A stretch of DNA of 61,509 bases, filler included, from an uncultured Methanosarcinales archaeon (GCA_964587045.1; 5 parts of 4 records of this genome joined end to end with filler, not necessarily neighbours in it); one strand, 5' to 3'. Positions 12,952-56,599 are shown, numbered from the whole stretch's first letter. Notes: generated by a model not told the origin, from the sequence alone. Numbers and translations: made by a program.

Positions 12952-12973
12952 GTTGCATGTTTTTTCACCTCTA

Positions 12974-13306
12974 TTACTGCAGGGCTTTGTAGAACTGCTC
13001 TGCTTGCTTTTCCTGTTCGAAGTAGGCGCGCACGTTTAGCATGTTGCTGCCCAACTCCTTTATTATCGATACGAACTTCGGAGCGCCGTTGCGCTCATCC
13101 ATTGGCACGTATCTGAAGTAGTTGAGGACATTCTCCTCAAGCCGGAATCCTTGGCCGGCCGCTGGGGAGATTACTTTACCCATCAGCAGGTCAATGGTCT
13201 CGCCAACCTTCTTCTTGGAACGTGTCTCTACCGAGAGCTCGCAAGTGCTGTATTCCCTTCCATTCACATTAGTGTTTTGTAGAGTTGTCTCTTTGTTTTC
13301 GAACAT
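12974..13306 (-). CDS. hypothetical protein
   Basis: ORF from MFENKE with GGAGG upstream. Confidence 0.6.
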   Translation of the reverse strand: MFENKETTLQNTNVNGREYSTCELSVETRSKKKVGETIDLLMGKVISPAAGQGFRLEENVLNYFRYVPMDERNGAPKFVSIIKELGSNMLNVRAYFEQEKQAEQFYKALQ

Positions 13307-13424
13307 ATTACCTCCCGCAACCAAATGTGCAGGTATATAAAAAAGATTTGTTGTTAGGCTTACCACAACATAAATGCAAATCTGTTCGAAAGATTTTTAA
13401 GTCTGATTCCTCCAATTAAGCCAT

Positions 13425-13565
13425 ATGAGCCCTGTAAAGGAAGATACCAGCGAAAACGGCGAGGAATGCCCTGTCTGCGGTAGCTTCAACACCCATAGGA
13501 ATTCTAACGGTGAGCTCGTCTGCAAGGAATGCGGAAATATCGATGTGCCTGCTTTGCCTGTCTGA
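13425..13565 (+). CDS. small zinc-ribbon protein (46 aa; not in ORF track)
   Basis: MSPVKEDTSENGEECPVCGSFNTHRNSNGELVCKECGNIDVPALPV: TFIIB-type CxxC-x14-CxxC. Confidence 0.7.
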   Translation: MSPVKEDTSENGEECPVCGSFNTHRNSNGELVCKECGNIDVPALPV

Positions 13566-13625
13566 TTCTAAGATAATTTTTTTAAATACATGATTTATCC
13601 AGCAATTCTTCCACAAGTAAAAAAA

Positions 13626-14138
13626 ATGATAGATTTAAACGAGATAATAAAATCGGGAGGCAACCTAAAGCTCCGCCTTCAGGAAATGACGATCCCTCAA
13701 CATTATTACGCAAGCTCAATTGGGGATCTTAACAGCGCCAAGCTTGACAACGGCCATTATGATCTCAAGCCTACTAAAAAGTTATTGCCAAAGGTCTGTC
13801 TGTTGAATGGGTGGACCTTTGTCTCCTTTCCCAGGCTGGATATCACCGATGTTACTCACGTACCCAGAGGGAGAGGAGAATTTAGACCTATTTTCACTTA
13901 CTCAGATATTACAGGATCATTTTCAGGAGGCATATTCCCCTTCAATAAGTCCTCGAAAAGCGGGAAACTCCGGTTTTCAGACGAAGCGGAGAAGGGCATG
14001 CGGCTCGAGTATCCGACCTTTATTTTCAAACCCGATGATTCCCTATACTTTCCGCTGAAGTTGCTCTATTTCAAGACAGAGCCAATTGGAGGCCATGAGA
14101 GCCAGAATTTAGTAGAGCTAGCTCTGAGCTTCGCATGA
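13626..14138 (+). CDS. hypothetical protein
   Basis: ORF, lower GC than the flanking housekeeping genes. Confidence 0.55.
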   Translation: MIDLNEIIKSGGNLKLRLQEMTIPQHYYASSIGDLNSAKLDNGHYDLKPTKKLLPKVCLLNGWTFVSFPRLDITDVTHVPRGRGEFRPIFTYSDITGSFSGGIFPFNKSSKSGKLRFSDEAEKGMRLEYPTFIFKPDDSLYFPLKLLYFKTEPIGGHESQNLVELALSFA

Positions 14139-16301
14139 TTTCTCGTCCTCGAACAGATCGAACCTGCCATGCAGCATGTCTCTCTTGGAGTAGTCGAACT
14201 TTCGCTTGCCAGGCGGGCTTATCCTTTTACAAGCCTCGAAGACTTCGACATCCTTCTTGCTCCTGTAGAACAGCCTTTCGTATCTATTAAGGCTCCTCTT
14301 GTCCAAATTCTTCACCCACATAAGTGTCTCAGGAATCTGTTCAGAGGTCATCTCCCCGAGGGTTATATCTGTGATCTCGAGCCTGTAACCATTTTCACTT
14401 GGGAGTTTAGTGTAGATGTTATGAGCGGTCACTCCCCGCAGACCTGACCAGTTCTCCCACTTCCTCATCTGGACCTCTGACGGCGTGATAGCTATCCTCC
14501 TGTATCCCGCGACAATCGCGAAGTGCTCAAGTGCGAGGATGACCATCTGCGCCCAGGAAGAGTACTTTTTCTTGAATGATGATGGGACATTTAGCTCCTT
14601 GTCGAAGATGTCGGTCTGGATTTCCTCGACGCGCAGGGTGTCGCCTTCTGGGTAGAACCTGGCATAGGCTATTGAGTTTTCGACGTGCTGGCTTATGGTA
14701 ATCCTCTGCTCCAGCAGTTCCTTAAGGACCTCCCTGTTTGGTGAGAGGATGAGGCGGGCGCCGAAGTTGTTGTCGATACCAAAGAAACCTGACCTCCGGT
14801 TCATCGGTTGAACTGTGAACTCCCCTTCGACGATCTTGCTTAGGCCGAACTCTTTTGGATCGACCTCCATTCCTGACATCTCCCTGAAGTCCTCAAGCTC
14901 CGCAACGACTGCTTCGAGGTCATAGGATTCTGAATCCTTGGCGCGTGCGATGACCTTCTTGAGGTCATTTTCATTGATCCTCAGCTGAGCAGCGATCAGC
15001 TCAATGGTTTTTCCGTGTAAGCCCTCAGTATTCTGCGCCCACATCCTGGCCAGGTACCTGGTGTGGCCACTGCTCCGCTCCGCGATCCCTGCCAGATCTT
15101 CTGATGTGATGAGTGGCGCCTTGCCAGCCTTGTCGAGCACCGCATGCCTGAAGCAGTCGTCGTTGAGGTCGAGGTCCTTAACCCTTATCTTGCACTCGTA
15201 ATCATGGGCTTTCCGAATAATATCCTCGACCTTGCTGACAATATCATCCGATGTTACCTGAACAGTCGGCATGCGTGATGAGTAGCCTATGACTCTCTTT
15301 TCGAAGCCGTAATCAATCAGCTGCATGTTGGGACCGAAGTGGTCGTGGTTGAAAAGCCCGAAGAGTTTGACTTGCGTCCCTTTTGGCACTTTCGAGAGGT
15401 ATTGGTCCAGATGCGCTCGGCCCTTGTCGCTGAACATTGAGCAATAGACCAGGTACAGCGCGCGGATGGTCCTGTTAAACCCTTTGGTCTTTCCCATCCA
15501 CTCCTTGAACACATCCTTGTTATCGTCGTATGCCTTGGTGAGATAATTTAGCATGAACGGTCCGAAGGTGTCATACATGGTCGTGGCCGCTTCCCCATGC
15601 TTTTCGTAGGCTTCGCTGAAACTGATGAAGTCGACTGCCGGCACCCCCTTTTTAAGGGCTTTCTCATACCCCCTCCTCTCGAAGAAGGAGTTAAGCGCAA
15701 TGGACTTGACAACATTTGTCTTGGCACGGCGAAACTGCGGCAGGCCCTTTATCCTTTCGTATAAAGCTTGTGTCTCAGAGTCGAGCGCTCCGTTGTAGAT
15801 CCTGTCCTTGAAATCCGCAAGTCTTGCTTTAAGCGCCCTGACCATCTCCTTTGGCACTTCCCTCCTGTTGAGTTTTTCGAGATATTTCTCGTACTCGTCA
15901 CTCTTTTCGTCCAAGGTGAACCTGCTGTCATCGATTTTTAATGAGGGGAGGAAGTCGTCCTCAAGCATCATGCCGCGTATGTTCTCAAGCCTGCCCAGCG
16001 TCTCGATGGGCACGTCCTCTTCGAAGAGGTGTTCCAACTGGCCGAAATCCCACTGGTAGACCCTGTTGACCTTGTATACCTCTTTTGCTGGGATGCTGTT
16101 CCTCTCTACGTAGGAGCTGGCTTTGTCGTGATCGAGCAAAAAGGCGACGTCTGAGTAATGCTGCGGTTTGACTTCTTTCTTGATGAAGAATGCCAGGAGA
16201 TTTTTCCAGTCGTGGCCGAGACCGACCATTGATATGACCTCATCTGGGTCGAATCCTTGGCCTGCGATTGCCTCTCTTGCTTCTTTTAGGATATCAGTCA
16301 T
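14118..16301 (-). CDS. large hypothetical protein (727 aa) with possible C-terminal GNAT-like domain
   Basis: Long ORF; C-terminal LRVEEIQTD...W...LEHFAIVAGYRRIAI...IYTKLP...GY pattern. Confidence 0.75.
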   Translation of the reverse strand: MTDILKEAREAIAGQGFDPDEVISMVGLGHDWKNLLAFFIKKEVKPQHYSDVAFLLDHDKASSYVERNSIPAKEVYKVNRVYQWDFGQLEHLFEEDVPIETLGRLENIRGMMLEDDFLPSLKIDDSRFTLDEKSDEYEKYLEKLNRREVPKEMVRALKARLADFKDRIYNGALDSETQALYERIKGLPQFRRAKTNVVKSIALNSFFERRGYEKALKKGVPAVDFISFSEAYEKHGEAATTMYDTFGPFMLNYLTKAYDDNKDVFKEWMGKTKGFNRTIRALYLVYCSMFSDKGRAHLDQYLSKVPKGTQVKLFGLFNHDHFGPNMQLIDYGFEKRVIGYSSRMPTVQVTSDDIVSKVEDIIRKAHDYECKIRVKDLDLNDDCFRHAVLDKAGKAPLITSEDLAGIAERSSGHTRYLARMWAQNTEGLHGKTIELIAAQLRINENDLKKVIARAKDSESYDLEAVVAELEDFREMSGMEVDPKEFGLSKIVEGEFTVQPMNRRSGFFGIDNNFGARLILSPNREVLKELLEQRITISQHVENSIAYARFYPEGDTLRVEEIQTDIFDKELNVPSSFKKKYSSWAQMVILALEHFAIVAGYRRIAITPSEVQMRKWENWSGLRGVTAHNIYTKLPSENGYRLEITDITLGEMTSEQIPETLMWVKNLDKRSLNRYERLFYRSKKDVEVFEACKRISPPGKRKFDYSKRDMLHGRFDLFEDEKSCEAQS

Positions 16302-18604
16302 TTTGCGTACTTTTCGATTATGTCCATTTCGGTGCTCTCATACTCTAATGCTATGGGCTTTCCTGCCCTGTAATTTTCGCACACTTTGCTGAAGCTCTTG
16401 AATGTAATGTAATCTGCGCCTTTTCGCCTCGAGGTCACGAAAACCGCATAGCGCTCGATGATGTTTTCCATGTCGAATTTCCTGGATTCAGTGAAATTTT
16501 CGATTGCCATCTGTATACTCCTTATGAAGTCTTTCTTAGTTACCCTATCCATCTGCTTGTACATGCTGACGACCTCTGAGCTTGGCACCAATCCTGCTCT
16601 GACCAGGTCAGATATTTCCTCAATCGATGAGTAGAACATACGTTCATTGATGTCTTCGGAAGTGCTGGTGCCGATTCTTATGCTCCTTAAGTCGAATCCT
16701 CCCTCTTCTGATGAGGCGACGAGCCCTTTGATGTCCGAGAATAAGGCTTGGTATTCCAGCCCAGTTTTCTCTTCTTTTTGATTTCGTTTTCCGAGGTGGT
16801 TGATATACCTGAAAGTGCTCTCTGCTAGCTTCTTATCCTCACCTTCCAAGCATGCGTCGATGGTCGCGAGCCTTTCATCTGCTGAGGGCATGTTCATGCT
16901 GACGAATCCATCGATGAGGGCGTCGACATCGTAGCCGGACCTGTTCCATCTTCGAAGGCTCTTTTGTACTGTGCTGATCGAGGATTTTAGGTTCTGGTAG
17001 TTGTCGATTCCGGCGAAGAGAGGGATCACATCATGGATCAGCCTCTCTGTGTCGATTATCGACTTCGTCCGGCCCGCGTGCCTGACCATCCTATGCAGGT
17101 TGCGTTCTAGGGACTCGAGGTTGTCTGATGCGGAAATGAGGTTCTTCATGGTGTGGCAGAACTCGTCTTCCTGCCACCTCACGAAGCCATGTTTGCCAGA
17201 GTACCTTATTATTTTGTAGAGCCGCTCAGCGCTTCCCTCAAGCTCATCGATGCTGCTGATGAGCGGACGGAATGTGCTGAATTTGCTTTGATACACCTTC
17301 TCAATTTCGTAGGAATCCATTCCCCTGTCAAGGAAGTGCTCATTTATTGCGAACACCGCTTCTCCGACCCGCCTCACCTCTGGGGCGTTGCGGGCAAGGT
17401 CGATATAGTCCAGCATGGTCTTGTAGAACATGCTGCTTTGGAATGTTTTGTTCCTGACAGCTTTTCTGATGAGCTTGGTGTACTCTATTATGCGGGCCGC
17501 TGTAGGCAGGTTTTCATAGATATGCTTTTGCCTGCTTGGGGAAAAGCACAGGCTCAGGTAACTCCTTTCTTCCCCAATACTCCTCTTTATGTCTTCGAGC
17601 AGTTTTAGCATGCGCTCTAGCTGCGAAGGGCTCTTGAACGCTTTTCCAGTGTATTGCAGTATCATAAAGTTCTCAGTGGACCCTGAATCGTGCATATGGC
17701 GTACGTAATCCTCCGGATTGACCAGCTTTTCGAAGAATGAGGTTAAGGTCTCGAAGGTTCTCTTCAGCCCATCAAGGTCTTGGGTTAGTGCTGGCAGTTT
17801 GCCCAAAGTATCGAAAATTCTGTAATAGTTATAGGCATACCGGTTTTGGAATTGTTGACTATATACTTTTTGATATTCTTTACTCGTCTTGACCTTCTTC
17901 ATCTTGAGCGCGCCCATCAGCCATATGCAGCCCTCCTCGAACTGGTCAAGCCCATGGAAGGTGTTGCTGACGCGTCCCAGGAAATCTGAAAAGAAGCCTT
18001 CGCGGCTGATATCATGCTTTCTTAGGCCTGCAGCGTATTTGTTGACCATCGCGGCAAGGTCAGAGACTTGCTCGTCTGTTGTCAGTATGCTGAGATTATT
18101 CTTGATGTTCTTTTGGAAGTATCCAACCTCCTGCCCTGTTTCCTGCCCCTTCCACAAGATTAGCTCGTCGACGAACTTCGAGAAGTCCTCTACGCATCTG
18201 AACTGCTCCCAGTCATCCTCGCTGAAGCTGATGAGAGATTCTATCTGTGAGGAAGCGATCTCATACCTGGTAATGTGTTTCATCATCCTCTTGAACGCGT
18301 CGTCGTTTGGACAGAGCCTGTTCACCATTGAGTAATAGTCTGGCAGGTCGTGAAATAAACTCGATTTTGAGAAGATGTTCGTCCCGTGCGCATTCGCGAC
18401 GGATTGCAGCAGGCAGATGTAGTCGATGTTTTGAAGGAATTGGGAATTGTCGTCAGCAAGATTGGGTGGCATGCTGGCAGCCTCTATCTGATAGACAAGC
18501 ATGATTAGTTCTTCGGGCGATTTGCTGGTTATCTCGGGGTTCTTGAAGCCCTTCCAGTAAATGATCTGTCTCTTGAGCTCCTCGTCGTCCATGCGGTCGG
18601 GCAA
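16298..18604 (-). CDS. large hypothetical, mostly helical protein (~765 aa)
   Basis: Long ORF coupled by an ATGA overlap to the downstream gene; no recognisable motif. Confidence 0.75.
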   Translation of the reverse strand: MPDRMDDEELKRQIIYWKGFKNPEITSKSPEELIMLVYQIEAASMPPNLADDNSQFLQNIDYICLLQSVANAHGTNIFSKSSLFHDLPDYYSMVNRLCPNDDAFKRMMKHITRYEIASSQIESLISFSEDDWEQFRCVEDFSKFVDELILWKGQETGQEVGYFQKNIKNNLSILTTDEQVSDLAAMVNKYAAGLRKHDISREGFFSDFLGRVSNTFHGLDQFEEGCIWLMGALKMKKVKTSKEYQKVYSQQFQNRYAYNYYRIFDTLGKLPALTQDLDGLKRTFETLTSFFEKLVNPEDYVRHMHDSGSTENFMILQYTGKAFKSPSQLERMLKLLEDIKRSIGEERSYLSLCFSPSRQKHIYENLPTAARIIEYTKLIRKAVRNKTFQSSMFYKTMLDYIDLARNAPEVRRVGEAVFAINEHFLDRGMDSYEIEKVYQSKFSTFRPLISSIDELEGSAERLYKIIRYSGKHGFVRWQEDEFCHTMKNLISASDNLESLERNLHRMVRHAGRTKSIIDTERLIHDVIPLFAGIDNYQNLKSSISTVQKSLRRWNRSGYDVDALIDGFVSMNMPSADERLATIDACLEGEDKKLAESTFRYINHLGKRNQKEEKTGLEYQALFSDIKGLVASSEEGGFDLRSIRIGTSTSEDINERMFYSSIEEISDLVRAGLVPSSEVVSMYKQMDRVTKKDFIRSIQMAIENFTESRKFDMENIIERYAVFVTSRRKGADYITFKSFSKVCENYRAGKPIALEYESTEMDIIEKYAK

Positions 18605-18656
18605 CCAAAAGTCTTTTTATAAAGATATCGGTTGTTAGTTACTTTGAAGTGAAGAA

Positions 18657-18776
18657 TGCGGGGGAAGGGGTTCGAACCCTCGTAGGCACTAAGCCACTGG
18701 GTTTCTCATGTTCTTCAAGTTTTTTTCCATCAGAACAGCCTAAGCCCAGCCCGTTTGACCGCTCCGGCACCCCCGC
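18657..18776 (-). tRNA. tRNA-Leu(UAG) with 36-nt intron at 37/38 (intron 18703-18738)
   Basis: GCGGGGGTGCCGGAGCGGTCAAACGGGCTGGGCTTAGG|intron|ACCCAGTGGCTTAGTGCCTACGAGGGTTCGAACCCCTTCCCCCGCA; long variable arm; strict BHB (CUUA/UGAG; UGUUCU/AGAACA). Confidence 0.94.
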
Positions 18777-18826
18777 GGAGTTGACACTAGGACAATTAGC
18801 CTACCTTAAAAAAGTTTTGCCAGAAA

Positions 18827-18991
18827 TCACTTCTTCTGCCAGGCGTAGCTTCGGATCTTGGAGGATGCGCCGAAGCCGCAGGAGCTGCACACCTTCTTCC
18901 TTGCGTGGTAAGTGTGCTCTCCGCATCTCCGGCAGTATATATGTGTCTTTTTGCCGGACTTCTTGCCCATTGAAGGGGTTCCCTTGCTCAT
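18827..18991 (-). CDS. rpl37e: 50S ribosomal protein L37e (54 aa; not in ORF track)
   Basis: [41 protein letters not shown]; directly downstream of the Sm gene, as is usual in archaea. Confidence 0.95.
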
Positions 18992-19001
18992 CTCTCATCA
19001 C

Positions 19002-19226
19002 TTATGCAGGCGAGATCAGTATGATCGTGTCGCCTCTGATGAAGACGACTCCCATCTTCTTCTTGATCTCTCCGTTCTCTCGCTCCTCAGCTTCCTCGAG
19101 CACCACGTTTATGTGGATGTCGAAGGCTTTCAGAATTCCTATGAACTGTAGTCCGTTCTTGAGGTTGACGATGACTCTTTTGTCTTTTGACCTGTTCAAT
19201 GCATCAAGCGGTCGTGCGGTTTCCAT
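19002..19226 (-). CDS. Sm-like archaeal protein (LSm/SmAP)
   Basis: RPLDAL...LKNG...GILKAFDIHINVVL...IRGDTI. Confidence 0.95.
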   Translation of the reverse strand: METARPLDALNRSKDKRVIVNLKNGLQFIGILKAFDIHINVVLEEAEERENGEIKKKMGVVFIRGDTIILISPA

Positions 19227-19444
19227 AATAAAAACACCCCGAACAATATTAGTGAGCCAGTGAATTCCGGCTAGGTATTTAAATGTTGCTATACAGGAAG
19301 AAGGAGGGTTGTAAAAATAACCGTGATGTGGAGATATTGGGGGAAAAAGAGGCAGATTATTACATGCGCGCCGCCGTACGTGACCAATCAATTTAAGAAT
19401 AACTGTTCTTTTCTGCTAAAAACTAGGTAAGAGGTACAGATAAG

Positions 19445-19840
19445 ATGGCAGATGTATTATACCAGCTTATGGGTGTAGACCATGAGGATGATAGACGAGA
19501 GCTGTTTTCCGCTTTCAATGGGGATTTGGGTGATTTCGTTGCCAGACAGGTCAAGTTCCTCAAATTGCGCAAGGATGCACAGCTCGGTGGCCACTACCAC
19601 GACTACCGCGAGCTCTTCTACCTGCTCGAAGGGAGCGCATCGTTTCAAATAATTGATATCAATTCAAAAGAAGAGACGATAATTGAAATGGTTCCAAAAA
19701 GCAGGATACTTCTTCCGCCCTACATGGCCCATAGGATATCTGTTGAAGGGGGATCGATTCTGGTCGGCTGCACGGAAAAAGAGTATGTCTCGCCCCAAGT
19801 CAACGATTTCCCTTATGATTTCGATGCAAGAATTCGCTAG
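19445..19840 (+). CDS. cupin-domain protein (WxcM/FdtA-like)
   Basis: LGGHYH...ELFYLLEG...PPYMAH. Confidence 0.75.
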   Translation: MADVLYQLMGVDHEDDRRELFSAFNGDLGDFVARQVKFLKLRKDAQLGGHYHDYRELFYLLEGSASFQIIDINSKEETIIEMVPKSRILLPPYMAHRISVEGGSILVGCTEKEYVSPQVNDFPYDFDARIR

Positions 19841-20232
19841 TGTTTTTTCCTAAACCCTTTTTCATCTCCGTATTCCAAGAAATCCTTGTGGTGTCTGGGC
19901 TCGATGAACCCTTTATACTTTTGGTGCTTTATCGCGCAGAAGTACCTCTCTGTTCTCGCTGCAATCTCAGACATGTACGCGGCCAGCCCGTTAGCGTAAC
20001 CGCAGTAGGAGCAGTTCAGCTTGTCCAGGGGCCCCAGGTACCTGAGCTTGTGCCTGTCAATCCTGATGTATGCTGATCGTCTGACCATCGGGATCCCGCA
20101 CAGCCGAAATCCCACCTGGTGGTAGAGCTCGACAGAAGCATCCAACAGGAGGAGCGGGAAGAAGATGAGGTAGATGAAAGGAGACGCGAGGATGTGCCTG
20201 AGCATCCGGTTCCGGTGCTTCTTGTATTCCAT
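19837..20232 (-). CDS. conserved hypothetical membrane protein
   Basis: IDRHKLRYL...KLNCSYCGYANG...TERYFCAIKH. Confidence 0.7.
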   Translation of the reverse strand: MEYKKHRNRMLRHILASPFIYLIFFPLLLLDASVELYHQVGFRLCGIPMVRRSAYIRIDRHKLRYLGPLDKLNCSYCGYANGLAAYMSEIAARTERYFCAIKHQKYKGFIEPRHHKDFLEYGDEKGFRKKH

Positions 20233-20306
20233 CAGCCAGTGCCAGCGAACATTAAAATATAAAGCTTTTCAAAACGTATTAATATGACCCGTCCCCTCTT
20301 GCTTTA

Positions 20307-20735
20307 ATGCTGCATACCACCAAGCCTAATGATTTCTCCTCCAAGTTCGATGTCGTCAGCTGTTTCCTTGAGTCCGGCGGCGAGATACTCCTCCTCAAGC
20401 GCCTGGACCACAAGCCTGAGGGCGGTCTGTGGGGAGCGCCGGCAGGAAAGGTCGACCCTGGAGAGACTCTCAACGAGGCGATGTCGCGGGAGGTGTACCA
20501 GGAGACCGGGGTCAGGATTGATGATTTCGAATACCTGGGCAAGCTGTACGTGAGGTACCCCGCCTACGACTTCGTCTACCACACCTACAAGAGAAAGCTT
20601 GCTTCCAGGCCTGATATAAGGGTAAAGGGCGACGAGCATGACAGGTTCATATGGGTCTCCCCAAGTGGAGCCCTGCGCATGCCACTGGTCCTCGACATGG
20701 ACGGCTGCATCAGGAAGTATTACAGCCTCGGGTGA
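20307..20735 (+). CDS. NUDIX hydrolase
   Basis: PAGKVDPGETLNEAMSREVYQETG Nudix box. Confidence 0.9.
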   Translation: MLHTTKPNDFSSKFDVVSCFLESGGEILLLKRLDHKPEGGLWGAPAGKVDPGETLNEAMSREVYQETGVRIDDFEYLGKLYVRYPAYDFVYHTYKRKLASRPDIRVKGDEHDRFIWVSPSGALRMPLVLDMDGCIRKYYSLG

Positions 20736-20772
20736 CAAGATTTATTAAATCAGGAGTCACGAATCTGCTATA

Positions 20773-21420
20773 TTGGTAAAAACCCACCTCTCGTTCAAGG
20801 TCGCGCTCGCAGTGTTCCTGCTTGCAGCGCTCTCAATCGCCGGGGTCGGGATGTACATCGGAAGCTTATGGCACGTCAGTGACGCCCCCAACACGGTTTT
20901 CCTCACATTCGACGACGGCCCGAGCAACAACACCTTGGAGGTTCTTAGGATACTGGATGAAAATGATGCCAAGGCGACCTTCTTCGTACTGGGGGATAAC
21001 GTGCGCGAGCATGAGGATATCACGAAGCAGATAGTGCGCGAGGGCCACGCAATAGGTTCCCATTCCATGAGCCATTGCGTGCTTTGCGGCCATCCCGAGG
21101 CCAAGGAGTCAAAGGAACTGATAGAGTCGGTCACCAACACAACCGTGAAGTATTTCAGGCCTCCCAGAGGCTACATAACGCCCTCTGCGTACATCGATGC
21201 GAGAAGGGCCGAGCTGACTATTGTCATGTGGGACGTCTACCCGCGCGACTACGCCAAGGGTCCGGACTATGTCAGGTCGTACATCCTGGACAAGTCGACT
21301 TCGGGCAGCATAATAGTCTTGCATGACGGACCGGGCGACAGGTCTGGGATGCTGGGCGTGCTGCCAGATATCATCAAGGGGCTTCGTTCCAGGGGATTTG
21401 AGTTCTCAACCCTGGACTGA
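20773..21420 (+). CDS. polysaccharide deacetylase (NodB family), N-terminal anchor
   Basis: TFDDGP, HSMSH, FRPPRG, IVLHDG. Confidence 0.92.
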   Translation: MVKTHLSFKVALAVFLLAALSIAGVGMYIGSLWHVSDAPNTVFLTFDDGPSNNTLEVLRILDENDAKATFFVLGDNVREHEDITKQIVREGHAIGSHSMSHCVLCGHPEAKESKELIESVTNTTVKYFRPPRGYITPSAYIDARRAELTIVMWDVYPRDYAKGPDYVRSYILDKSTSGSIIVLHDGPGDRSGMLGVLPDIIKGLRSRGFEFSTLD

Positions 21421-22179
21421 CATCTTCTCCTTGGTCACTTCATAGTCCACTATTTGCAGGAAGTCTATCCTGTCCTTCGGCACGATTGAGTATATGCGTT
21501 CCAGGTCTTGTTGGTCATGGCCTATCAGCGTGAGGTAGAAGTTGCGTGCCGGAAGGTAATGCTGCAGTTCCTTCAAGGACTGTCCGAAGAGGTCGGAGCC
21601 GGTGTTGCGCCTGAAGTTCTGGGGGTTGGTCCCCTTCAGGCAGCCTGTCAGCAGGAAATGGTGCAGGCCCAGGAACTCCCACGGCCTCTTGTTGACGAAG
21701 TGCTCCTCGACCAAGATGACGTCTGAGAACAGCACGACTTCTCGGAGGTTGTGCCTATCTAGGGCTTGCCTCAGCTCCTTCCAGAACTCGCAGTAGATGG
21801 CAGGAGCCCCGCCCATGAAGTGGAAGACCTTCAGCTTGATGCCGAACTTGGGCTCGACCTCAGCTTTGAAGGAGATGAACCTCTCTACCAGCTCGTCAGC
21901 GCCCATGGTCAGGTCGGCCTTAAGGTTGTCGACGTAGCAGTAGGGGCACTTCAGAGGGCAGCCTGCAGCCTGGACTATGAAGTGGTTGTTGTAATCCTCC
22001 CATCTCCCGCCGAAGAGCTCTGCCATACGATAGGGCGACCTATCTCCCCTGTCATCGTGCGAGCCCCTGCCTTTGGCAACAGTGCAAATCCTCGCGACAT
22101 CATCGTGGTAGACGATACCGGATGATTTCTCTACATCGATCTGCTGCGTCTTGCCTATCTTGGCTATATCGACCTTCAC
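21406..22179 (-). CDS. radical SAM-like protein
   Basis: GCPLKCPYC (CxxxCxxC) and FMGGAP. Confidence 0.7.
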   Translation of the reverse strand: MKVDIAKIGKTQQIDVEKSSGIVYHDDVARICTVAKGRGSHDDRGDRSPYRMAELFGGRWEDYNNHFIVQAAGCPLKCPYCYVDNLKADLTMGADELVERFISFKAEVEPKFGIKLKVFHFMGGAPAIYCEFWKELRQALDRHNLREVVLFSDVILVEEHFVNKRPWEFLGLHHFLLTGCLKGTNPQNFRRNTGSDLFGQSLKELQHYLPARNFYLTLIGHDQQDLERIYSIVPKDRIDFLQIVDYEVTKEKMSVQG

Positions 22180-22619
22180 ATGGCTCCCCCGTGGTAGTCC
22201 AACCTGTAGATCTCATTGCCTTTGTAGAGGATCCTCTCAACCCCTGTGAACCTGGGGATACCACCATCTGTTTTATTGGTGTACTTGAGATTCCCTTTGG
22301 TTAACAGGCGTGGCCCTCTGAACGGGCTTTCCCTTGTAACAAGTCTCAATGCGTTCTTTAGGAAGCTGTAGACCTCTTTTGCAGGCATAGCGTCTGAGGT
22401 TATCTTCCCGAAATAGTTCATCGACCAGATTATCTTTCCGTCCTCCCAAACGGTTTCCTGGCCTGAGAACGGGTTGAACCCGTAATACTTATCTTGGTAC
22501 CTATACTTGCCCTCTTGGCATGTCAGCACCTTGCACCCGTCCGGGAGAGTTCTCTCCAGGCTTTGCTCGCTTGCGTATGTCGCGCGCTTGGCTCTGACCA
22601 GAAATTTGCTCAATCCCAT
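22176..22619 (-). CDS. DUF5680-like protein
   Basis: YQDKYYGFNPFSGQETV...WSMNYFG...PFRGP...YHGG pattern. Confidence 0.7.
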   Translation of the reverse strand: MGLSKFLVRAKRATYASEQSLERTLPDGCKVLTCQEGKYRYQDKYYGFNPFSGQETVWEDGKIIWSMNYFGKITSDAMPAKEVYSFLKNALRLVTRESPFRGPRLLTKGNLKYTNKTDGGIPRFTGVERILYKGNEIYRLDYHGGAM

Positions 22620-22675
22620 AGTTTATAGGGAAAAATGGTATTATTTAAAGCTTATTCAGCCGCAGCTTGGGTGAT

Positions 22676-22703
22676 ATTGAGCATGATTCCTGTTATGTGT
22701 TTT
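22676..22703 (+). repeat. dif-like site 1 (degenerate left arm): ATTGAGCATGA TTCCTG TTATGTGTTTT
   Basis: Read directly; sits at the GC/AT boundary. Confidence 0.75.
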
Positions 22704-22827
22704 TTCTGAAAGAAAAAATGCTGAAGCGTAGGCACAGTATGACACAGAGAAAAAGTAGATCTTTTGATTAGAAAAATACTCCTTATGAATAGTAATGTTT
22801 ATATAACAAGTTCTAATTCCGATTTGA

Positions 22828-23382
22828 ATGGGAACACGAATGCTTACAAACCGAGAGTTAACTGATTTAATGGGTTTGAAATTAAATATAGAAATTCTTT
22901 CTGGTGACAACAAAGAGATGGTTGAAGGGTGTCTTGCTCCTGCAGAGAATGGGATTGAAGCATGTGTGTTTTATCATCATGGAAGTGAAACAAAATCAAC
23001 CCTTGCTCATGAAATAGTTGTCGCTCATTATCCAATTTACTCAAAAGAAAGATATATGGCTGTAAATAAAATATTGAAGAAGTTTGCAAAAATTGTAGAA
23101 GGAGCTAAGGAAAAAGGTGCCTATGAACCATTTGATTTTGATGCTTTAAATAAACTTCCCGCTGAAATATGTTATCCATCTCCTTCTAAAGGAGAGATTT
23201 GGCAACCTTCAATTAGATTATATAGGGGAACACCTGTGTGGGATGCAAATGGGCAGTTGAGAATGAATTTTGTTGGGACATCAACAACCAGCTATTTGTC
23301 CTTAGCTTATAAATCGCATAATAGGGGTGCAGAAGCACTAAATAATGCAGGTATAGCGACAACTACCTCTATACTTCAATAA
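22828..23382 (+). CDS. cassette A: hypothetical protein
   Basis: 184-aa ORF; TTTATATA at 22798-22805. Confidence 0.75.
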   Translation: MGTRMLTNRELTDLMGLKLNIEILSGDNKEMVEGCLAPAENGIEACVFYHHGSETKSTLAHEIVVAHYPIYSKERYMAVNKILKKFAKIVEGAKEKGAYEPFDFDALNKLPAEICYPSPSKGEIWQPSIRLYRGTPVWDANGQLRMNFVGTSTTSYLSLAYKSHNRGAEALNNAGIATTTSILQ

Positions 23383-23447
23383 CAACCACAGATCTTAGGA
23401 TTATTTTTTACCTATTAGTGTGATCTTATCACTTTTTCTGGAGTAAT

Positions 23448-23475
23448 ATTGCACATAATTCCTGTTATGTCTCCC
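23448..23475 (+). repeat. dif-like site 2: ATTGCACATAA TTCCTG TTATGTCTCCC
   Basis: Read directly. Confidence 0.85.
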
Positions 23476-23611
23476 GACGACTGAAAGGAGGAGAGCGCAG
23501 CGGGGCACAATCCGAAGGATTTTGGGTTCAGAATTCGGGTGTATTTAATATTAACTTCCAAGTAGTAAATTATTCGAAATGTTTATAAATATTAGATTAA
23601 TAACTACCAAT

Positions 23612-23980
23612 ATGAGAGAAGCAATTACCCAATTATTTCAACAAGTTGGAAAAGATTATCAAGATAGAGGAGTTGCTGAATTTGATTTACATCAAGGTCA
23701 CGATGTTCATGCATTTTATAGACTTTCAGGTTATCCATCTAAAGTAGTTCATGTTCAAGGTTATACGGGAATGAGTTCTGACAATGAAGCAAGAGTTTGG
23801 GCAAGAATGATGGATTATGACCTAATGATGAAAATAAGAGGGAGTGGAGGAGTTTCAGTAGGAAACGAACATGAAGCAACAACAGAACAATTTCCAAATT
23901 TTGAAAATGGAATAATGATTCCATATGATTCAAAAGTTCTTGAAGATAAATTGGCGGAAAACGTTCCAGAGTTGAAATAA
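23612..23980 (+). CDS. cassette B: hypothetical protein
   Basis: ORF from MREAITQ; TTTATAAA at 23582-23589. Confidence 0.75.
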   Translation: MREAITQLFQQVGKDYQDRGVAEFDLHQGHDVHAFYRLSGYPSKVVHVQGYTGMSSDNEARVWARMMDYDLMMKIRGSGGVSVGNEHEATTEQFPNFENGIMIPYDSKVLEDKLAENVPELK

Positions 23981-24017
23981 ACGCCCCGCTTCTTATAAGT
24001 GTTAAGTCTTTTTCTCA

Positions 24018-24045
24018 ATTGAAACTAATCCTTGTTATACGTTTT
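24018..24045 (+). repeat. dif-like site 3: ATTGAAACTAA TCCTTG TTATACGTTTT
   Basis: Read directly. Confidence 0.85.
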
Positions 24046-24107
24046 TTCTGCAAGAAAAAAATCACGGAGTGAAATGGAGCGACAGTATGACGCAGAGAGC
24101 TTTTCCG

Positions 24108-24605
24108 TCACTTGTTGAAAAAATTAACACATTCTGGAATTACTTTTAGAAATTTATCTGGACTATTTTTTAACTCATTAAGTAATTCTTCTTTTGAAAA
24201 CCACTTAATTTTTTCAACTTCCTCTTCTTGAATTGTAAACTCTTCGATTTTTTTATCGACTAAGGCAAAAAACCATTGAGTAAAATGTTTATGTTGTCCC
24301 TCGTGAAAATGATGAAACGACTTTTGAAATTCTTGATTCTTTAAACCAATCTCTTCTTCAGCTTCTTTAACAATATTGGATTCATAAGATTCTCCTTCAT
24401 CAATAGTTCCTGCAACCGCGGGACCCCATTGACCTGGATTATTCTTTTTATTGAATGATCTTTGTGCAAGGAGAATCTCACCTCTTGAATTTTGAATCCA
24501 TAAAGCTGAAACTCTATAAATATCTGATTGGTTTAAAGATCCTCTTTCTTTAGAACCTATAATTTCATCATTTTCATTAACAATAATTATTTTTGCCTTA
24601 GACAT
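24108..24605 (-). CDS. cassette C: NUDIX hydrolase (IDI/YfcD-like)
   Basis: LAQRSFNK..PGQW..AVAGTIDEGESY....KEAEEEIG. Confidence 0.9.
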   Translation of the reverse strand: MSKAKIIIVNENDEIIGSKERGSLNQSDIYRVSALWIQNSRGEILLAQRSFNKKNNPGQWGPAVAGTIDEGESYESNIVKEAEEEIGLKNQEFQKSFHHFHEGQHKHFTQWFFALVDKKIEEFTIQEEEVEKIKWFSKEELLNELKNSPDKFLKVIPECVNFFNK

Positions 24606-24664
24606 ATATTTTTACAATTCAAGAAGTAATATAAATTTATCGAAAGGAAAAGCTCTCGAGTAAT

Positions 24665-24692
24665 ATTGCGTATAACCGATGTTATGTCCTTT
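24665..24692 (+). repeat. dif-like site 4: ATTGCGTATAA CCGATG TTATGTCCTTT
   Basis: Read directly. Confidence 0.85.
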
Positions 24693-24794
24693 TCCCATAC
24701 GGAGTGTGGGAAAACTGCGTCCGCAGAGTCGGGAAAGGACAATTCCATCTAGCACGAAGTGCAATTAAGAAAACAATTAAAGGCAAAAACAAAA

Positions 24795-25481
24795 TTATTT
24801 ATACATGGAAACAACTTTTTCTAGAGCGGGAAGATGGTCGGGTCTAAAGTTAAGTTCTTTTCTTATATCTTTGCCAACTAAAGAACCAATAGGAACCCAT
24901 CTTTGAGATGCAATCTCATCTGAACCTCTTACATGACCTATTCTACAGACATAATATTCACACATCTCTGACTGTTTATACTTATCTTGTCCAGAATTAT
25001 CTATAACAGGAACTTTCATTATAAACTGTAGATTTTTTGGGTCAATACTTATGCCCTGTTCTTCTTGAAAACCTCTTAATACAGAGTCAAAATAACTTTC
25101 CCTAACATTTACATGTTCAGAAACACTTACATCACTCATTGAAGGAAATAAATCTTTTTTAGAAGATCTTGTTGGAACAAGTATTTCATCATTATCATTA
25201 ATAATGAATGCGTTTGCACCTCTATGATAAAATCCTTTTAACCTATCATCTCCATGACATTCTTTTCTATAGAAAACAAGGTCATTTCCTTCGACGTTAT
25301 AAGGTCTATCGTTTTGATCAAAAATTTGGAACCATTCGTATTTGCTACCTTCTACCTCCTGTTCTTTATCACCTAAGGCAGTATCATCCATAGAAGTAGC
25401 TAATACTAAGCCATTATCTTTTACAGAAAAATTAAGTGTTCTACCTGCAATATTTTCCAATTCTTTTTTTGTGATATTCAT
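24795..25481 (-). CDS. cassette D: NUDIX hydrolase (IDI-like) with N-terminal extension
   Basis: YHRGANAFI...TRSSKKDLFP...SEHV..RESY...RGFQEEQG. Confidence 0.85.
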   Translation of the reverse strand: MNITKKELENIAGRTLNFSVKDNGLVLATSMDDTALGDKEQEVEGSKYEWFQIFDQNDRPYNVEGNDLVFYRKECHGDDRLKGFYHRGANAFIINDNDEILVPTRSSKKDLFPSMSDVSVSEHVNVRESYFDSVLRGFQEEQGISIDPKNLQFIMKVPVIDNSGQDKYKQSEMCEYYVCRIGHVRGSDEIASQRWVPIGSLVGKDIRKELNFRPDHLPALEKVVSMYK

Positions 25482-25557
25482 TTATTGTTGTTACTATTTA
25501 GTAGTATATAAATATTTCGATTTTGTTTTTGCCTAACCTAGTTTTTGTCCTTTCCCG

Positions 25558-25585
25558 ATTGAAACTAATCACTGTTAGTTTCTTT
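25558..25585 (+). repeat. dif-like site 5: ATTGAAACTAA TCACTG TTAGTTTCTTT
   Basis: Read directly. Confidence 0.85.
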
Positions 25586-25740
25586 TACCCTACGAAGTGG
25601 GGTAAAATTGCGTCCGCAAAGTTGAGTTTGAGTTTTCCTTCCACGTTTTACATTCATTTTTATATCAAGGGTCGCCCTAATAAATAGTAACTAAATAGTA
25701 GTAAATAGTAAAAAAGTTTATAAACTATAGTATTTACACT

Positions 25741-26289
25741 ATGAATATGGCATTAAGTGAACACTTTTGGAATAAATTAGGAGGATATGTTAGAGCAGGA
25801 AATAGAGTTGCCGAGCTATACCATGGCGAAAAAGATGATATTCTTAGGGGATTAGCTGAAATTGTTTCAGATGAAGGAGTGGTATATGGTGTTGATCATC
25901 TAAATCCATTTGAAAGACATAATAATATGCGAGAATTGCAGAAATTATCAAATGTCAGATTATTGAAAGCATCAATTCCACCACTGCCAGCTGAAGTTTC
26001 TAATTTGGATGCTGTTTTAATCAGAGAATTTATTTGGACTTATCCTCTTCCTTATAATGGTTCTGAAAATCCACAAACATACGAAGCAATTGATACAGCT
26101 GTAAATGTTGGGGGACATTTTATTTTACATTTAAATCCTACAGAACAAGAGAATGAGAAACGAAAGCACCCAATGTATCAAGATACTATGAACCGGCAAC
26201 TTCCTCATTTTCAAAAAGTATATAATCGCGAGGATTTGATAGTCTATCAAAAAACTTCTTCTAGGACATTAAATAGGGCGACCCAATAA
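25741..26289 (+). CDS. cassette E: class I SAM-methyltransferase-like fold protein
   Basis: GNRVAELYHG...LAEIVSDEGVVYGVD...LDAVLI...VGGHFIL resembles a degenerate MTase. Confidence 0.6.
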   Translation: MNMALSEHFWNKLGGYVRAGNRVAELYHGEKDDILRGLAEIVSDEGVVYGVDHLNPFERHNNMRELQKLSNVRLLKASIPPLPAEVSNLDAVLIREFIWTYPLPYNGSENPQTYEAIDTAVNVGGHFILHLNPTEQENEKRKHPMYQDTMNRQLPHFQKVYNREDLIVYQKTSSRTLNRATQ

Positions 26290-26310
26290 ATTAGAGAAAA
26301 CTCAAACTCA

Positions 26311-26338
26311 ATTGAAACTAACCCTTGTTATGTGGGGA
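26311..26338 (+). repeat. dif-like site 6: ATTGAAACTAA CCCTTG TTATGTGGGGA
   Basis: Read directly. Confidence 0.85.
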
Positions 26339-26372
26339 GACTGCAAGTCGACCGACCGAAGGGACAGTTGAA

Positions 26373-26768
26373 CTAAGAAAATTTACTAGCATACTCAATC
26401 CAATTTTTATGATGTAAAGATAATTTATCCGCCACTTGCATTATTCTACCATAAATTGTTGTAGGTGTCTGTTTTCTTCTATGATTGAGAATACAATCTG
26501 AAATTTCTTCTTTAAAGGATTTAAATTCAGGATACTTTTGCAAAAATTTATCTAAATATTGAAGGCCTAGTTCATGATGTTTATCTTTATCATCTTTCCT
26601 TCCAATATCATGAATCCAACCTGAGATATCAAAAACAATTGGATTTAGATCAGTATTCTTAATCATATTATTACAACAATCTATTACACAAGCAGAATGA
26701 ATTTTTATTTTTTCATCATTCCATTCTTGTTCAAAAAATTCTTTTGCTTTTGAATATGCGTCACTCAT
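26373..26768 (-). CDS. cassette F: HD-domain phosphohydrolase
   Basis: H...WIHDIG...HH...H...ADKL. Confidence 0.88.
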   Translation of the reverse strand: MSDAYSKAKEFFEQEWNDEKIKIHSACVIDCCNNMIKNTDLNPIVFDISGWIHDIGRKDDKDKHHELGLQYLDKFLQKYPEFKSFKEEISDCILNHRRKQTPTTIYGRIMQVADKLSLHHKNWIEYASKFS

Positions 26769-26811
26769 AGAAATTAAATTGTATTTAAGGTATATAAATT
26801 TTCTTAGTTCA

Positions 26812-26822
26812 ATTGCACATAA
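26812..26822 (+). repeat. dif-like site 7, left arm only (ATTGCACATAA; contig ends here)
   Basis: Identical to the left arm of site 2; followed by Ns. Confidence 0.75.
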
Positions 26823-26922
26823 NNNNNNNNNNNNNNNNNNNNNNNNNNNNNNNNNNNNNNNNNNNNTTAATTAATTAANNNNNNNNNNNNNNNNNNNNNN
26901 NNNNNNNNNNNNNNNNNNNNNN
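26823..26922. other. assembly linker (N-TTAATTAATTAA-N)
   Basis: N run with stop linker. Confidence 0.98.
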
Positions 26923-27232
26923 ACAAGGAATAGGTTCTGTAATTGAGGAAACGCCAACAGGCCCATTATTTCACATCCAACCATTAGCTACAAATGCTGG
27001 AAACCTTAAGTTGTTAAAAATCCGAAAGCCAGACACAACAAGACCGGAGTTGGGGGATGCTGATTTTACGGTTTCGGATTATCCTGGATTCAAGAAGAAA
27101 TATTTGCCACGAAAAGAGTTTAAATTGATAATACGCGAAGACTTCGAGATGATTGAACTTACAGATTCTCGATTTAATATGAGGGCATACTTTTCGAATC
27201 CACCTCTGGATAAACAGCTCGGGATTGAATAA
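26923..27232 (+). CDS. hypothetical protein, C-terminal part (5' truncated by gap)
   Basis: Reading frame ending KIRKPDTTRPELGDADFTVSDY...RAYFSNPPLDKQLGIE. Confidence 0.6.
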
Positions 27233-54325: not shown

Positions 54326-55441
54326 ATGACCCACAGGGCTGCCGGTACAAAAAACGCTGACGCTAGGATAGAAGAGCTTGAAAAAGAGCTCTCCAAGACC
54401 AAGTACAACAAGAGGACCCAGCACCACGTAGGGCTGGTCAAGGCCAAGATAGCGGCGCTTCGTGACAAGGAGAAGAAGAAGACTGCTGGCAAGGGCAAGA
54501 CCTACGGTTATTCAGTTAGGAAGACAGGAGATGCGACCGTCATACTGATTGGCTTTCCTTCAGTTGGGAAGAGCACGCTTCTAAATGCCCTCACAAACAA
54601 GGAAAGCGAGGTCGGTGCTTACGATTTCACGACGCTTACAGTCGTGCCGGGCCTCCTTGTGTACCAGGGGGCTCAGATCCAGATACTCGATGTCCCTGGA
54701 ATCGTTAGGGGAGCCGCTTCAGGACAGGGTCGGGGTAAAGAGGTTTTGTCTGTTATGAGAAATGCCAACATGGCGGTGCTTATCATAGATGCGACGCAGC
54801 CCAGGAATTTCATAACGTTGGTCAAGGAGGTGAGGCTTGCTGGTCTGCGTCTCAATGAACATCCTCCCGACGTCAAGATCAGCAAGACCGGCAAAAACGG
54901 AATACAGGTGGGGACGACCTGTAGGCTGACCAAGATAACCAAAGAGACCATAAAAGACATGCTCAAAGAGTTCAGGATTCTGAACGCTGAGGTAATAGTC
55001 AGGGAGAACATAACCGACGACCAGCTGATTGACTCCATCGAGGCGAACAAGGTCTACATGCCAGCTGTTACAGTGTTGAACAAGGCCGACCTGGTCTCGA
55101 AGGGTGAAGCGAATGAGTTAATGGCGAGATACGGGGCTGACATCGCCATCTCGGCTGAGAAGCGCGAGAATATCGACCAGCTGAAGGAGCTGATATTCAA
55201 TCGTTTGGGTTTCATAAGAATTTTCCTAAAGGAGCCCTCAAAGCCTGCTGACCTTGAAGAGCCCCTCATCATGTTTGATGGCTGCACGGTCCATGATGTA
55301 GGGCAGAAGCTTCATAAGGATTTCATCAACAAGTTCAAATTCTCCAGGGTCTGGGGTAAGAGCGCTAAGTTCCCTGGACAGAAATTCTCCATCAGGCACG
55401 CCTTGAAGGACGGGGACATATTAGAGGTCCACCTCAACTGA
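54326..55441 (+). CDS. DRG/OBG family GTPase with TGS domain
   Basis: GFPSVGKS, YDFTTL, DVPGI, NKAD, C-terminal TGS. Confidence 0.95.
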   Translation: MTHRAAGTKNADARIEELEKELSKTKYNKRTQHHVGLVKAKIAALRDKEKKKTAGKGKTYGYSVRKTGDATVILIGFPSVGKSTLLNALTNKESEVGAYDFTTLTVVPGLLVYQGAQIQILDVPGIVRGAASGQGRGKEVLSVMRNANMAVLIIDATQPRNFITLVKEVRLAGLRLNEHPPDVKISKTGKNGIQVGTTCRLTKITKETIKDMLKEFRILNAEVIVRENITDDQLIDSIEANKVYMPAVTVLNKADLVSKGEANELMARYGADIAISAEKRENIDQLKELIFNRLGFIRIFLKEPSKPADLEEPLIMFDGCTVHDVGQKLHKDFINKFKFSRVWGKSAKFPGQKFSIRHALKDGDILEVHLN

Positions 55442-56060: not shown

Positions 56061-56599
56061 AGTATCACCAGCAGGCCCAGGCAGGCGGCGAGCACGATGA
56101 ATGCGGGTTTGCTCCACCTAAATATCTTGAGGCCGTCGAAGGGACCGAATGGTATCATGTTGAACAACCCAATCCATGCGTTGATGTAGGCTCCGAAGCT
56201 GAAGAACGCTATTGAGGGTACGATGATACTTGCCAAGAAGAACGCGAATGCCAGTATGAGATTTGCAAACGGCCCTGCACTCGCAATCATGCCGTGCTTC
56301 CTCGCGGTTAAGGGGCCTCTTATCATTACAGCTCCGGGAGCGATGAAAAGTATGCCGAAGAATGAGATCGCGAGGGCCAATATGAGCATCTTGTTGTCTG
56401 CGAGGAAGGTGGCTTGGGTTCCCAGACGTTGCGCCACATACTTGTGGGAGAGTTCGTGGGCGACCATTCCCAGGCCGACCGTCACGGCTGCTATGGCTAT
56501 GATGTTGAGGAATCCTTGGCTTATCCCGCCCATGGCGAATGCGACTGCGAGTGATACCACTGCCCAGGCCTTCACAAGTTCGAAAGCTTCACCCCTCAT
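56057..56599 (-). CDS. M50 (site-2) family metalloprotease
   Basis: HELSH, AGPFAN, NMIPFGPFDG. Confidence 0.9.
   Translation of the reverse strand: MRGEAFELVKAWAVVSLAVAFAMGGISQGFLNIIAIAAVTVGLGMVAHELSHKYVAQRLGTQATFLADNKMLILALAISFFGILFIAPGAVMIRGPLTARKHGMIASAGPFANLILAFAFFLASIIVPSIAFFSFGAYINAWIGLFNMIPFGPFDGLKIFRWSKPAFIVLAACLGLLVIL

Follow-up and report, generated by a model that had tools for sequence, protein, structure and literature searches.

A likely integron-like array of single-gene cassettes bounded by Xer-type sites in a Woesearchaeota-type archaeon

Of the platforms that store single genes as exchangeable cassettes, only integrons are, to our knowledge, well understood, and their origin from Xer-type enzymes is an open question. 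Two other kinds of element rely on Xer-type recombination. Integrative mobile elements exploiting Xer (IMEX) comprise the CTX, VGJ and TLC phages and the gonococcal island, with a folded single strand serving as substrate in the case of the CTX phage. The pdif sites of Acinetobacter alternate in orientation, are located on plasmids and use the host XerC/XerD. In Archaea, integrons and clusters of attC sites without an integrase (CALINs) have been reported, Nanoarchaeota included (Ghaly et al., 2022; PMC9668308), and the dif site of Pyrococcus abyssi reads ATTGGATATAA-TCGGCC-TTATATCTAAA (Cortez et al., 2010; PMC2958812), both as given in the available parts of these papers. Here we describe a stretch of 61,509 bases (the window) in which the block at 22676-26822 is likely the assembled part of an integron-like, Xer-type cassette array of a Woesearchaeota-type (DPANN) archaeon, served by a dedicated Xer-like recombinase. 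No description of Xer-type cassette arrays in archaea was found in the literature searched (subscription journals lay outside it), and the available part of PMC8371274 mentions neither DPANN, cassettes nor IMEX.

The window consists of contigs of the genome under study (G000, a 1.6-Mb assembly; C numbers denote its contigs and other G numbers its relatives), strung together by N runs around TTAATTAATTAA. Positions 12952-26822 correspond to G000:C14:32001-45871, and the AT-rich block is the final 4.1 kb of this 45.9-kb contig, with a GC content of 0.28-0.35 versus about 0.50-0.56 in the surrounding DNA. Because C14 stops at 26822 and a linker follows, the array is open-ended and contig C22 is not its true neighbor. 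The co-oriented repeat pattern that the preliminary description had reported in this block was confirmed. Allowing at most one mismatch, ATTGNNNNTAANNNNTGTTA (ATTG-N4-TAA-N4-TGTTA) matches six times in the window, every time on the plus strand (starts at 22676, with TGA for TAA as its one mismatch, 23448, 24018, 24665, 25558 and 26311), against 0.10 matches expected by chance and with none of 100 shuffles reaching six. Each gap among the six open reading frames (ORFs) holds one site. Six of the seven sites originally claimed are complete and lie where they had been placed, while the seventh (26812) consists of a left arm cut by the contig end. The claim of six unrelated genes holds for their number, but two of them share NUDIX domains, although the similarity between the two is remote (29% identity over 68 aa, E 1e-4). 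The possibility that the motif is equally common in ordinary DNA was not borne out: the exact pattern occurs 10 times across the genome (nine forward, one reverse) versus once for a backwards control, and all 10 matches are confined to three AT-rich islands, on C14, C3 and C28. In addition, a metagenome contig of 1,581 bases is colinear with window positions 22244-23824 at 99.8% identity and covers the host gene, site 1, cassette 1, site 2 and cassette 2; it may stem from the same sample as the source or from a sister sample. What the present analysis adds to the preliminary description is the contig end that cuts the array, long cassette-specific inverted ends, hairpin modules, a second array and the recombinase.

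All junctions share one layout (Table 1). A 28-bp core (ATTG-N4-TAA, a 6-nt spacer and TTA-N4) has the geometry of an archaeal XerA dif site and is followed by a GC-rich module of 30-50 nt with one or two hairpins. Past the module, the sequence can pair with that immediately preceding the next site, which is the other end of the same cassette, and this complementarity extends over N4 plus another 12-33 bp. Cassette 6, for instance, begins with TTATGTG, a 30-nt module and CAGTTGAACTAAG..., and ends with ...CTTAGTTCAATTGCACATAA. Similarly, the right half of site 3 (TTATACG), at the start of cassette 3, has its complement in the left arm of site 4. The modules fall into families. Family A occurs behind sites 1 and 3 and in other genomes, family C of site 2 has a counterpart in G009, and the module of site 6 has one in G105. 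The two family B copies behind sites 4 and 5 differ in both P3 and P4 through compensatory changes. Each gene in the window is preceded, 25-30 nt before its start and on its own strand, by a TATA-like box, the repeated type being GTATATAAAT; judged by the archaeal consensus, these boxes are probably the cassette promoters. Translation of the cassette 2 gene likely begins with the ATG at 23614, downstream of a TATA-like box at 23581-23593.

Table 1. Sites, modules, cassette genes and assembly joint in the array region (window coordinates).
Feature	Position	Strand	Characteristics
Site 1, left array boundary	22676..22703	+	ATTGAGCATGA / TTCCTG / TTATGTG...; left arm belongs to the GC-rich host side
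Cassette 1 module hairpins, family A	P3 22700-22718, P4 22719-22734	+	
Cassette 1 P1 3' arm	22736..22761	+	Partner is the 5' arm 23422-23450; 22 predicted pairs
Cassette 1 gene	22828..23382	+	184 aa, no family; TATA-like box at ~22799 (putative promoter)
Site 2	23448..23475	+	ATTGCACATAA / TTCCTG / TTATGTC; then GC-rich module, family C, to about 23507
Cassette 2 gene	23579..23980	+	At most 133 aa, no family
Site 3	24018..24045	+	ATTGAAACTAA / TCCTTG / TTATACG; then family A module, hairpin 24042-24060
Cassette 3 gene	24108..24605	-	165 aa, NUDIX hydrolase, PF00293, E 3e-20
Site 4	24665..24692	+	ATTGCGTATAA / CCGATG / TTATGTC
Family B module behind site 4	24690..24726	+	P3 24690-24714; P4 24715-24726, CTGC-GTCC-GCAG
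Cassette 4 gene	24795..25481	-	228 aa, NUDIX domain, E 9e-7
Site 5	25558..25585	+	ATTGAAACTAA / TCACTG / TTAGTTT
Family B module, second copy, behind site 5	25583..25619	+	P3 25583-25607; P4 25608-25619
Cassette 5 P1 3' arm	25621..25637	+	Partner 26296-26312; 17 pairs, one of them G.T
Cassette 5 gene	25741..26289	+	182 aa, no family
Site 6	26311..26338	+	ATTGAAACTAA / CCCTTG / TTATGTG; then GC-rich module 26335-26363
Cassette 6 P1 3' arm	26366..26405	+	Partner 26777-26814; 33 predicted pairs
Cassette 6 gene	26373..26768	-	131 aa, HD domain, PF01966, E 2e-7
Site 7, left arm alone	26812..26822	+	ATTGCACATAA; truncated by the end of C14
Contig-joining linker	26823..26922		N runs around TTAATTAATTAA; assembly artefact, not genome

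The matching of the two cassette ends can be put into numbers. Among 26 cassettes from seven arrays, the N4 of the right half-site and that of the cassette's own left half-site are complementary at 3.0 of four positions on average and perfectly so in 13 out of 26, whereas non-cognate pairs (n=1,095) reach a mean of 1.55 and are perfect in 6%. Two further observations bear on the point of exchange. In the C3 array a 477-bp cassette is duplicated in tandem, each copy starting with the AA of the left arm and stopping short of TGTTA, so that the edges of the duplication lie between TAA and TGTTA, in the spacer region. Metagenome contigs that share the modules alone become alike at site positions 10-16. 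Given the edges of the duplication and of the metagenome likeness together with the half-site rule, strand exchange would take place within the spacer or at its edges, and each cassette would therefore start with a right half-site and end with a left half-site. The duplicated cassettes on C3 are flanked by two ‘empty cassettes’ of 28 bp (55308-55369 and 56296-56357, outside the part of C3 included in the window), in each of which a right and a left half-site are separated by just 6-7 nt and enclose no cargo.

At least 13 sites are distributed over the three islands of this genome. The second array, located between uvrC and a gene for a small membrane protein, is entirely contained in its contig (C3:54119-56357) and closes with a distinct, full 11-6-11 terminal site, ATTCGATTTAA / CTGTTC / ATATCGGCAAT. 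This terminal site is present in three copies: at the end of the C3 array, at C37:44-71, about 100 bp before an intact gene for a tyrosine recombinase of 283 aa, and at the end of C19, where it precedes a decayed copy of the recombinase gene (a pseudogene). Both C37 and C19 break just upstream of the terminal site. The 55 bases before the terminal site (C37:1-55 and the C19 end) are 94.5% identical to L092:3523-3577 of G065, a member of another family, where this stretch precedes a recombinase of clade III (see below) and GGAACTCCCC-like boxes are repeated upstream. The third island (C28:1-2600) lies at a contig start and has the appearance of a decayed or rearranged array, with an exact site on the minus strand (700) facing a degenerate site (601), a family E module and, on the plus strand, another degenerate site (~1236). 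The AT-rich contig ends of C9 and C10 show no clear sites.

The recombinase (G000:C37:167-1018) lies outside the window. Its best NCBIfam family is archaeal XerA (NF040815), at 193.6 bits and thus below the 220-bit cut-off, and it also scores below the cut-off of the integron integrase family TIGR02249 (184.9 versus 265 bits). Residues 177-206 align to residues 177-250 of VchIntIA (IntI4), and about 44 residues of the IntI-specific insertion are missing. Matches to PF00589 in G000 number only three, all Xer-like, the third gene being cut by the start of C24. Homologues of the C37 enzyme (E<=1e-10) are found in 95 out of 121 genomes of the order (a tally that includes G111), many of them 0.2-1.5 kb from a contig end. 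Co-oriented arrays lie directly upstream of the recombinase gene in G105, G096, G079, G020 and G007, and single terminal sites in G035, G108 and G025. In G000 and its relatives, a distinct terminal site, a candidate for an attI-like platform, is found 75-350 bp upstream of the recombinase gene; the gene, however, is downstream of the array and co-oriented with it. In 24 loci of other genomes, fetched with a pattern for the family B module, 84 sites lie on the strand of the seed (26 of them being the seeds themselves) and eight on the other, and in all five loci (four contigs) that hold a recombinase gene it is downstream and co-oriented.

A tree of 44 recombinases has three groups. Clade I (22 rows, support 100/99) holds the C37 enzyme and every enzyme with an array of at least three sites. 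In clade II, a palindromic dif such as TTCGTATAA-N6-TTATACGAA lies at the start of the genes, and none of the 14 loci of this clade has an array upstream. Clade III includes the C24 fragment, and some of its members have single terminal-like sites. In the complete genome of G096 (1.13 Mb), all six exact sites are clustered on a single strand in the 10 kb just upstream of the clade I gene, with none elsewhere (control 0), while the complete genomes of G016 and G084, which have no full clade I gene, contain none. The C37 enzyme would be the dedicated recombinase that acts on these sites. In clade I relatives (e.g., L058, L060, L062, L067, L070, L074 and L071), one or two copies of CACTGGWCACTGGACA, which looks like an operator, directly precede the TATA box of the recombinase gene; the C37 copy of G000 is not preceded by it. 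Near-perfect palindromic dif sites of the TTCGTATAA-N6-TTATACGAA type are located within ~30 nt of the xerA start codon in L076, L079, L080, L084, L087 and L089. In Thermococcales, unlike in these clade II relatives, dif is not next to xerA, according to the available part of PMC2958812.

The closest alternative is that the cassettes are small, IMEX-like mobile circles that use the ordinary XerA and accumulate at the chromosomal dif, with no dedicated capture platform. The core does resemble dif, and the terminal right arm of the relatives is like the right arm of the palindromic dif at clade II xerA starts. Moreover, the complete genome of G096 has only one Xer-like gene (E<=1e-10), the array-linked one, and neither a clade II xerA nor a canonical palindromic dif was found in the G000 assembly. 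Tandem elements between co-oriented dif-like attachment sites are also what IMEX produce. Yet the arrays accompany a well-supported enzyme clade of their own, are absent upstream of all 14 dif-type (clade II) loci, and occur at least twice in G000, with three terminal sites where one dif per chromosome is expected. The elements themselves are single accessory genes with no replication, phage or virion genes. We therefore regard this explanation as unlikely. The 11-6-11 geometry put forward in the preliminary description agrees with the P. abyssi dif (ATTG..TAA / 6 / TTA), whose Thermococcales sequence it had given correctly (PMC2958812, available part), XerA is the best-scoring family, and one site in a relative carries the entire P. 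abyssi left arm ATTGGATATAA. In contrast to XerA/dif, the sites here are many per genome and form arrays, their right arm is broken after 7 nt (TTA-N4) by a hairpin module, and the enzyme falls below the XerA cut-off in a clade separate from dif-adjacent xerA. The pdif modules also resemble the cassettes as gene modules bounded by Xer-type sites, but the sites described here are chromosomal, co-oriented throughout the window and linked to a dedicated single recombinase.

We joined the end, spacer and start of each cassette as in an excised circle and computed minimum-energy folds with DNA parameters. On the written strand, a four-way cloverleaf is predicted that recurs among cassettes, with P1 as a cassette-specific outer stem, P2 as the hairpin formed by the core, the spacer being in the loop, and P3 and P4 as the module hairpins. 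For 53 cassettes, cognate joins fold at -20.4 kcal/mol and non-cognate ones at -13.7 kcal/mol, a difference of 6.7 (Mann-Whitney p 3e-9). Unlike the cassette bodies, the module families recur, at 80-95% identity, in genomes belonging to other families of the order. An alignment of 27 family B copies (25 from elsewhere, mostly the 24 pattern-fetched loci, plus the two of the window) shows compensatory changes at seven out of 11 P3 pairs, and the outer pair of P4 switches between C-G and T-A (18 versus 9) and is unpaired in none. The covariation score is 0.341 versus 0.121 in shuffled alignments, with none of 500 shuffles reaching it, and drops to 0.02-0.13 when the partner is slid. The hairpin structure of the module is thus under constraint. 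An Rfam scan of 22000-26822 (E<=10) returned only chance-level matches, none near the gathering score. The flank GTAATATTG / CAGTATGAC was considered for its resemblance to the nonanucleotide of circular Rep-encoding viruses and dropped, as the motif lies in a stem rather than a loop and there is no Rep gene.

The folds also differ between strands. Top-strand (written) folds of the 53 cassettes contain 98 G.T pairs versus 29 in bottom-strand folds, and the top-strand fold is the more stable one in 40 of them. Excluding the conserved ATTG/CAGT position leaves 69 versus 27 G.T pairs, with 14 loci having more on top and one fewer. This bias is a signature of one strand being read, as DNA or RNA. 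Single-stranded DNA is the better reading of the two since the orientation of the modules is constant whereas that of the genes varies (29 of the 54 cassette ORFs on the plus strand, 25 on the minus strand). Together with the compensatory changes, the strand-specific G.T pairs suggest that recognition of the cassette site involves a folded single strand, similar to integron attC and CTX-phage attP.

The same hairpins could belong to structured intergenic repeats (terminator or insulator hairpins, or elements resembling miniature inverted-repeat transposable elements, MITEs) within a horizontally acquired island, the sites then not being recombination sites at all. Modules in multiple copies with many different flanks in metagenome runs would fit this explanation, and hairpins with compensatory changes could have roles at the RNA level. 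Pairing in a MITE, however, would be confined to a single junction; in the arrays, the partner is found at the other end of the cassette, and the modules are oriented independently of gene strand. The sites are further absent from the remainder of the complete genomes and tied to a recombinase gene, which makes such repeats a highly unlikely explanation.

As in integrons, archaeal integrons and CALINs included (PMC9668308, available part), mostly single-gene cassettes stand in rows with co-oriented sites between them. The sites are imperfect palindromes conserved more in structure than in sequence, a gene of the Xer/IntI recombinase superfamily lies beside the array together with a distinct terminal site that may serve as a platform, the cargo is very diverse, and there is evidence of one strand as the folded substrate. 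There are also differences: the recombinase has no IntI-specific insertion and is encoded downstream of the array in the same orientation, and the core is dif-like (11-6-11) with its arms 6 nt apart. Exchange would fall at the center of the palindrome, leaving half-sites at opposite cassette ends, in contrast to attC, an R''-L''...L'-R' hairpin where exchange takes place at G|TT in R' and the palindrome stays intact between cassettes. A four-way cloverleaf is predicted rather than a bulged hairpin, and the cassettes have promoters of their own (as judged from their TATA-like boxes) in either direction, while integron cassettes are mostly promoterless, co-oriented and dependent on a common promoter, Pc. 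Fitting attC boxes by eye gave an R''-like AACTAAC and an R'-like GTTGAAC at site 6 only, not at sites 4 or 5, and was rejected. Least probable of all is a canonical integron or CALIN with divergent attC sites served by IntI: such elements are reported in Archaea including Nanoarchaeota (PMC9668308, available part), the core GTTA is loosely like the GTTRRRY box and structure is conserved over sequence, but no IntI-type enzyme is present (those of the three Xer-like tyrosine recombinases of G000 that were scored fall below the TIGR02249 cut-off), the palindrome is split by the exchange point, and five short site motifs had no match in two supplementary files of PMC9668308, a weak test as these files may not list attC sequences.

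We thus return to an Xer-type cassette array as the likely explanation. Six single-gene cassettes, each with what appears to be an archaeal-type promoter of its own and encoded on either strand, would be joined head to tail via co-oriented sites. The cassettes would be excised as circles, and the joined site of a circle may fold as a single strand into the cloverleaf that serves as recombinase substrate. A dedicated Xer-like recombinase without IntI insertion, presumably that of C37, would act on the cassette sites, and the terminal site may play the part of attI, where new cassettes enter. The tyrosine-recombinase capture platform in a DPANN archaeon that the preliminary description had proposed is supported in that the sites behave as cassette boundaries and the arrays accompany an Xer-like recombinase. 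As to its statement that the architecture could not be matched to a described system, the locus departs from integrons, pdif modules and plain dif in defining features, and the literature searched yielded no description of it.

Several points weigh against this explanation. The window array is not physically joined to the recombinase, as it ends with C14 while the gene is on another contig, and eight out of 22 clade I loci have no upstream site by the patterns used (four of them have <700 bases, one has 6 kb). Cassettes 2 and 4 fit the half-site rule poorly (one out of four N4 positions), and the spacers travel consistently with neither half-site, so that the exchange point is not narrowed to one edge. 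The cloverleaf is a minimum-energy prediction on constructed joins, and palindromic ends fold by construction. The pattern that fetched the family B modules fixed the inner P4 pairs, leaving P3 free, and the p-values overstate the evidence as kin are not independent. All relatives searched belong to other families, leaving no close strain for comparison, and no recombination product (circle junction, empty site or alternative cassette order) was seen. Three salt-marsh metagenome runs reported no such joints; the organism is present in them only as ~150-base contigs at a depth of 2-3, which makes this result uninformative either way. Two linked entries in the output of the metagenome runs were considered as junctions and rejected because they merely connect look-alike modules.

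The cargo of the arrays is accessory, diverse and sporadic. Among 54 cassettes, there is one pair of cross-genome homologues and one duplicate. The protein of cassette 1 has two relatives (78% and 55%) among 5.8 billion proteins and occurs in none of the 400 other genomes of the order, only in G000 itself (1/401); a metagenome scan with this cassette returned only the near-identical colinear contig mentioned above. Among the products of other G000 cassettes are a P-loop kinase-like protein, a DUF1284 protein and proteins of unknown nature. A defense island was considered and rejected, PADLOC giving a single weak match (NUDIX cassette 3 to PDC-S07). The host is in the same order of the Genome Taxonomy Database (GTDB) as genomes titled Woesearchaeota, to which order G096 and G020 belong as well. 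The records matching the pattern are mostly titled Woesearchaeota, Pacearchaeota or Nanoarchaeota. Eight out of 24 loci are labeled otherwise (six Methanosarcinales, one Euryarchaeota and one Eubacteriales), seven of these on third-party assemblies, and we take these eight labels to be putative mislabels. With about 30% GC inside a host of 53% GC, the cassettes are visibly of foreign origin without any model, and their composition shows that they derive from an AT-rich pool common to Woesearchaeales and Pacearchaeales.

A broader reading, to which we give about even chances, is that DPANN archaea (Woesearchaeales and Pacearchaeales) possess a gene-capture system that did not descend from integrons. 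It would combine a dedicated XerA paralogue, a dif-derived platform, circular single-gene cassettes and an attachment site folded from a single strand into a cloverleaf with the dif-like core as one arm. Such a system would mean either that the integron principle was invented a second time, starting from Xer/dif, or that the way in which integrons emerged from Xer can still be observed today. It would also be a main route of gene flow among these tiny symbionts, GC-rich hosts like the present one included. The job of an integron would then be done by a plain Xer-like enzyme and dif-like sites, so that actual sequences become available for testing the transition from Xer to integron. In DPANN archaea, whose genomes are otherwise minimal, it would also provide a mechanism for the extensive and so far unexplained flux of accessory genes. 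The window is an unusually clear case, as captured cassettes and host differ sharply in GC content. Arrays of this type would probably escape existing integron finders, which rely on IntI and attC.

Two minor observations concern the margins of the array. In the window, the linker is followed at 26923-27232 (the start of C22) by an AT-rich partial ORF of 102 aa with no family, abutting GC-rich host genes with no site between; its position next to the array is an artefact of contig joining. On the left side, the array is preceded by host genes on the minus strand for a radical-SAM protein (21406-22179) and a DUF5680 protein (22176-22619), and the left arm of site 1 plus its flank (GGTGATATTG) resembles the GAGTAATATTG flank at cassette ends.

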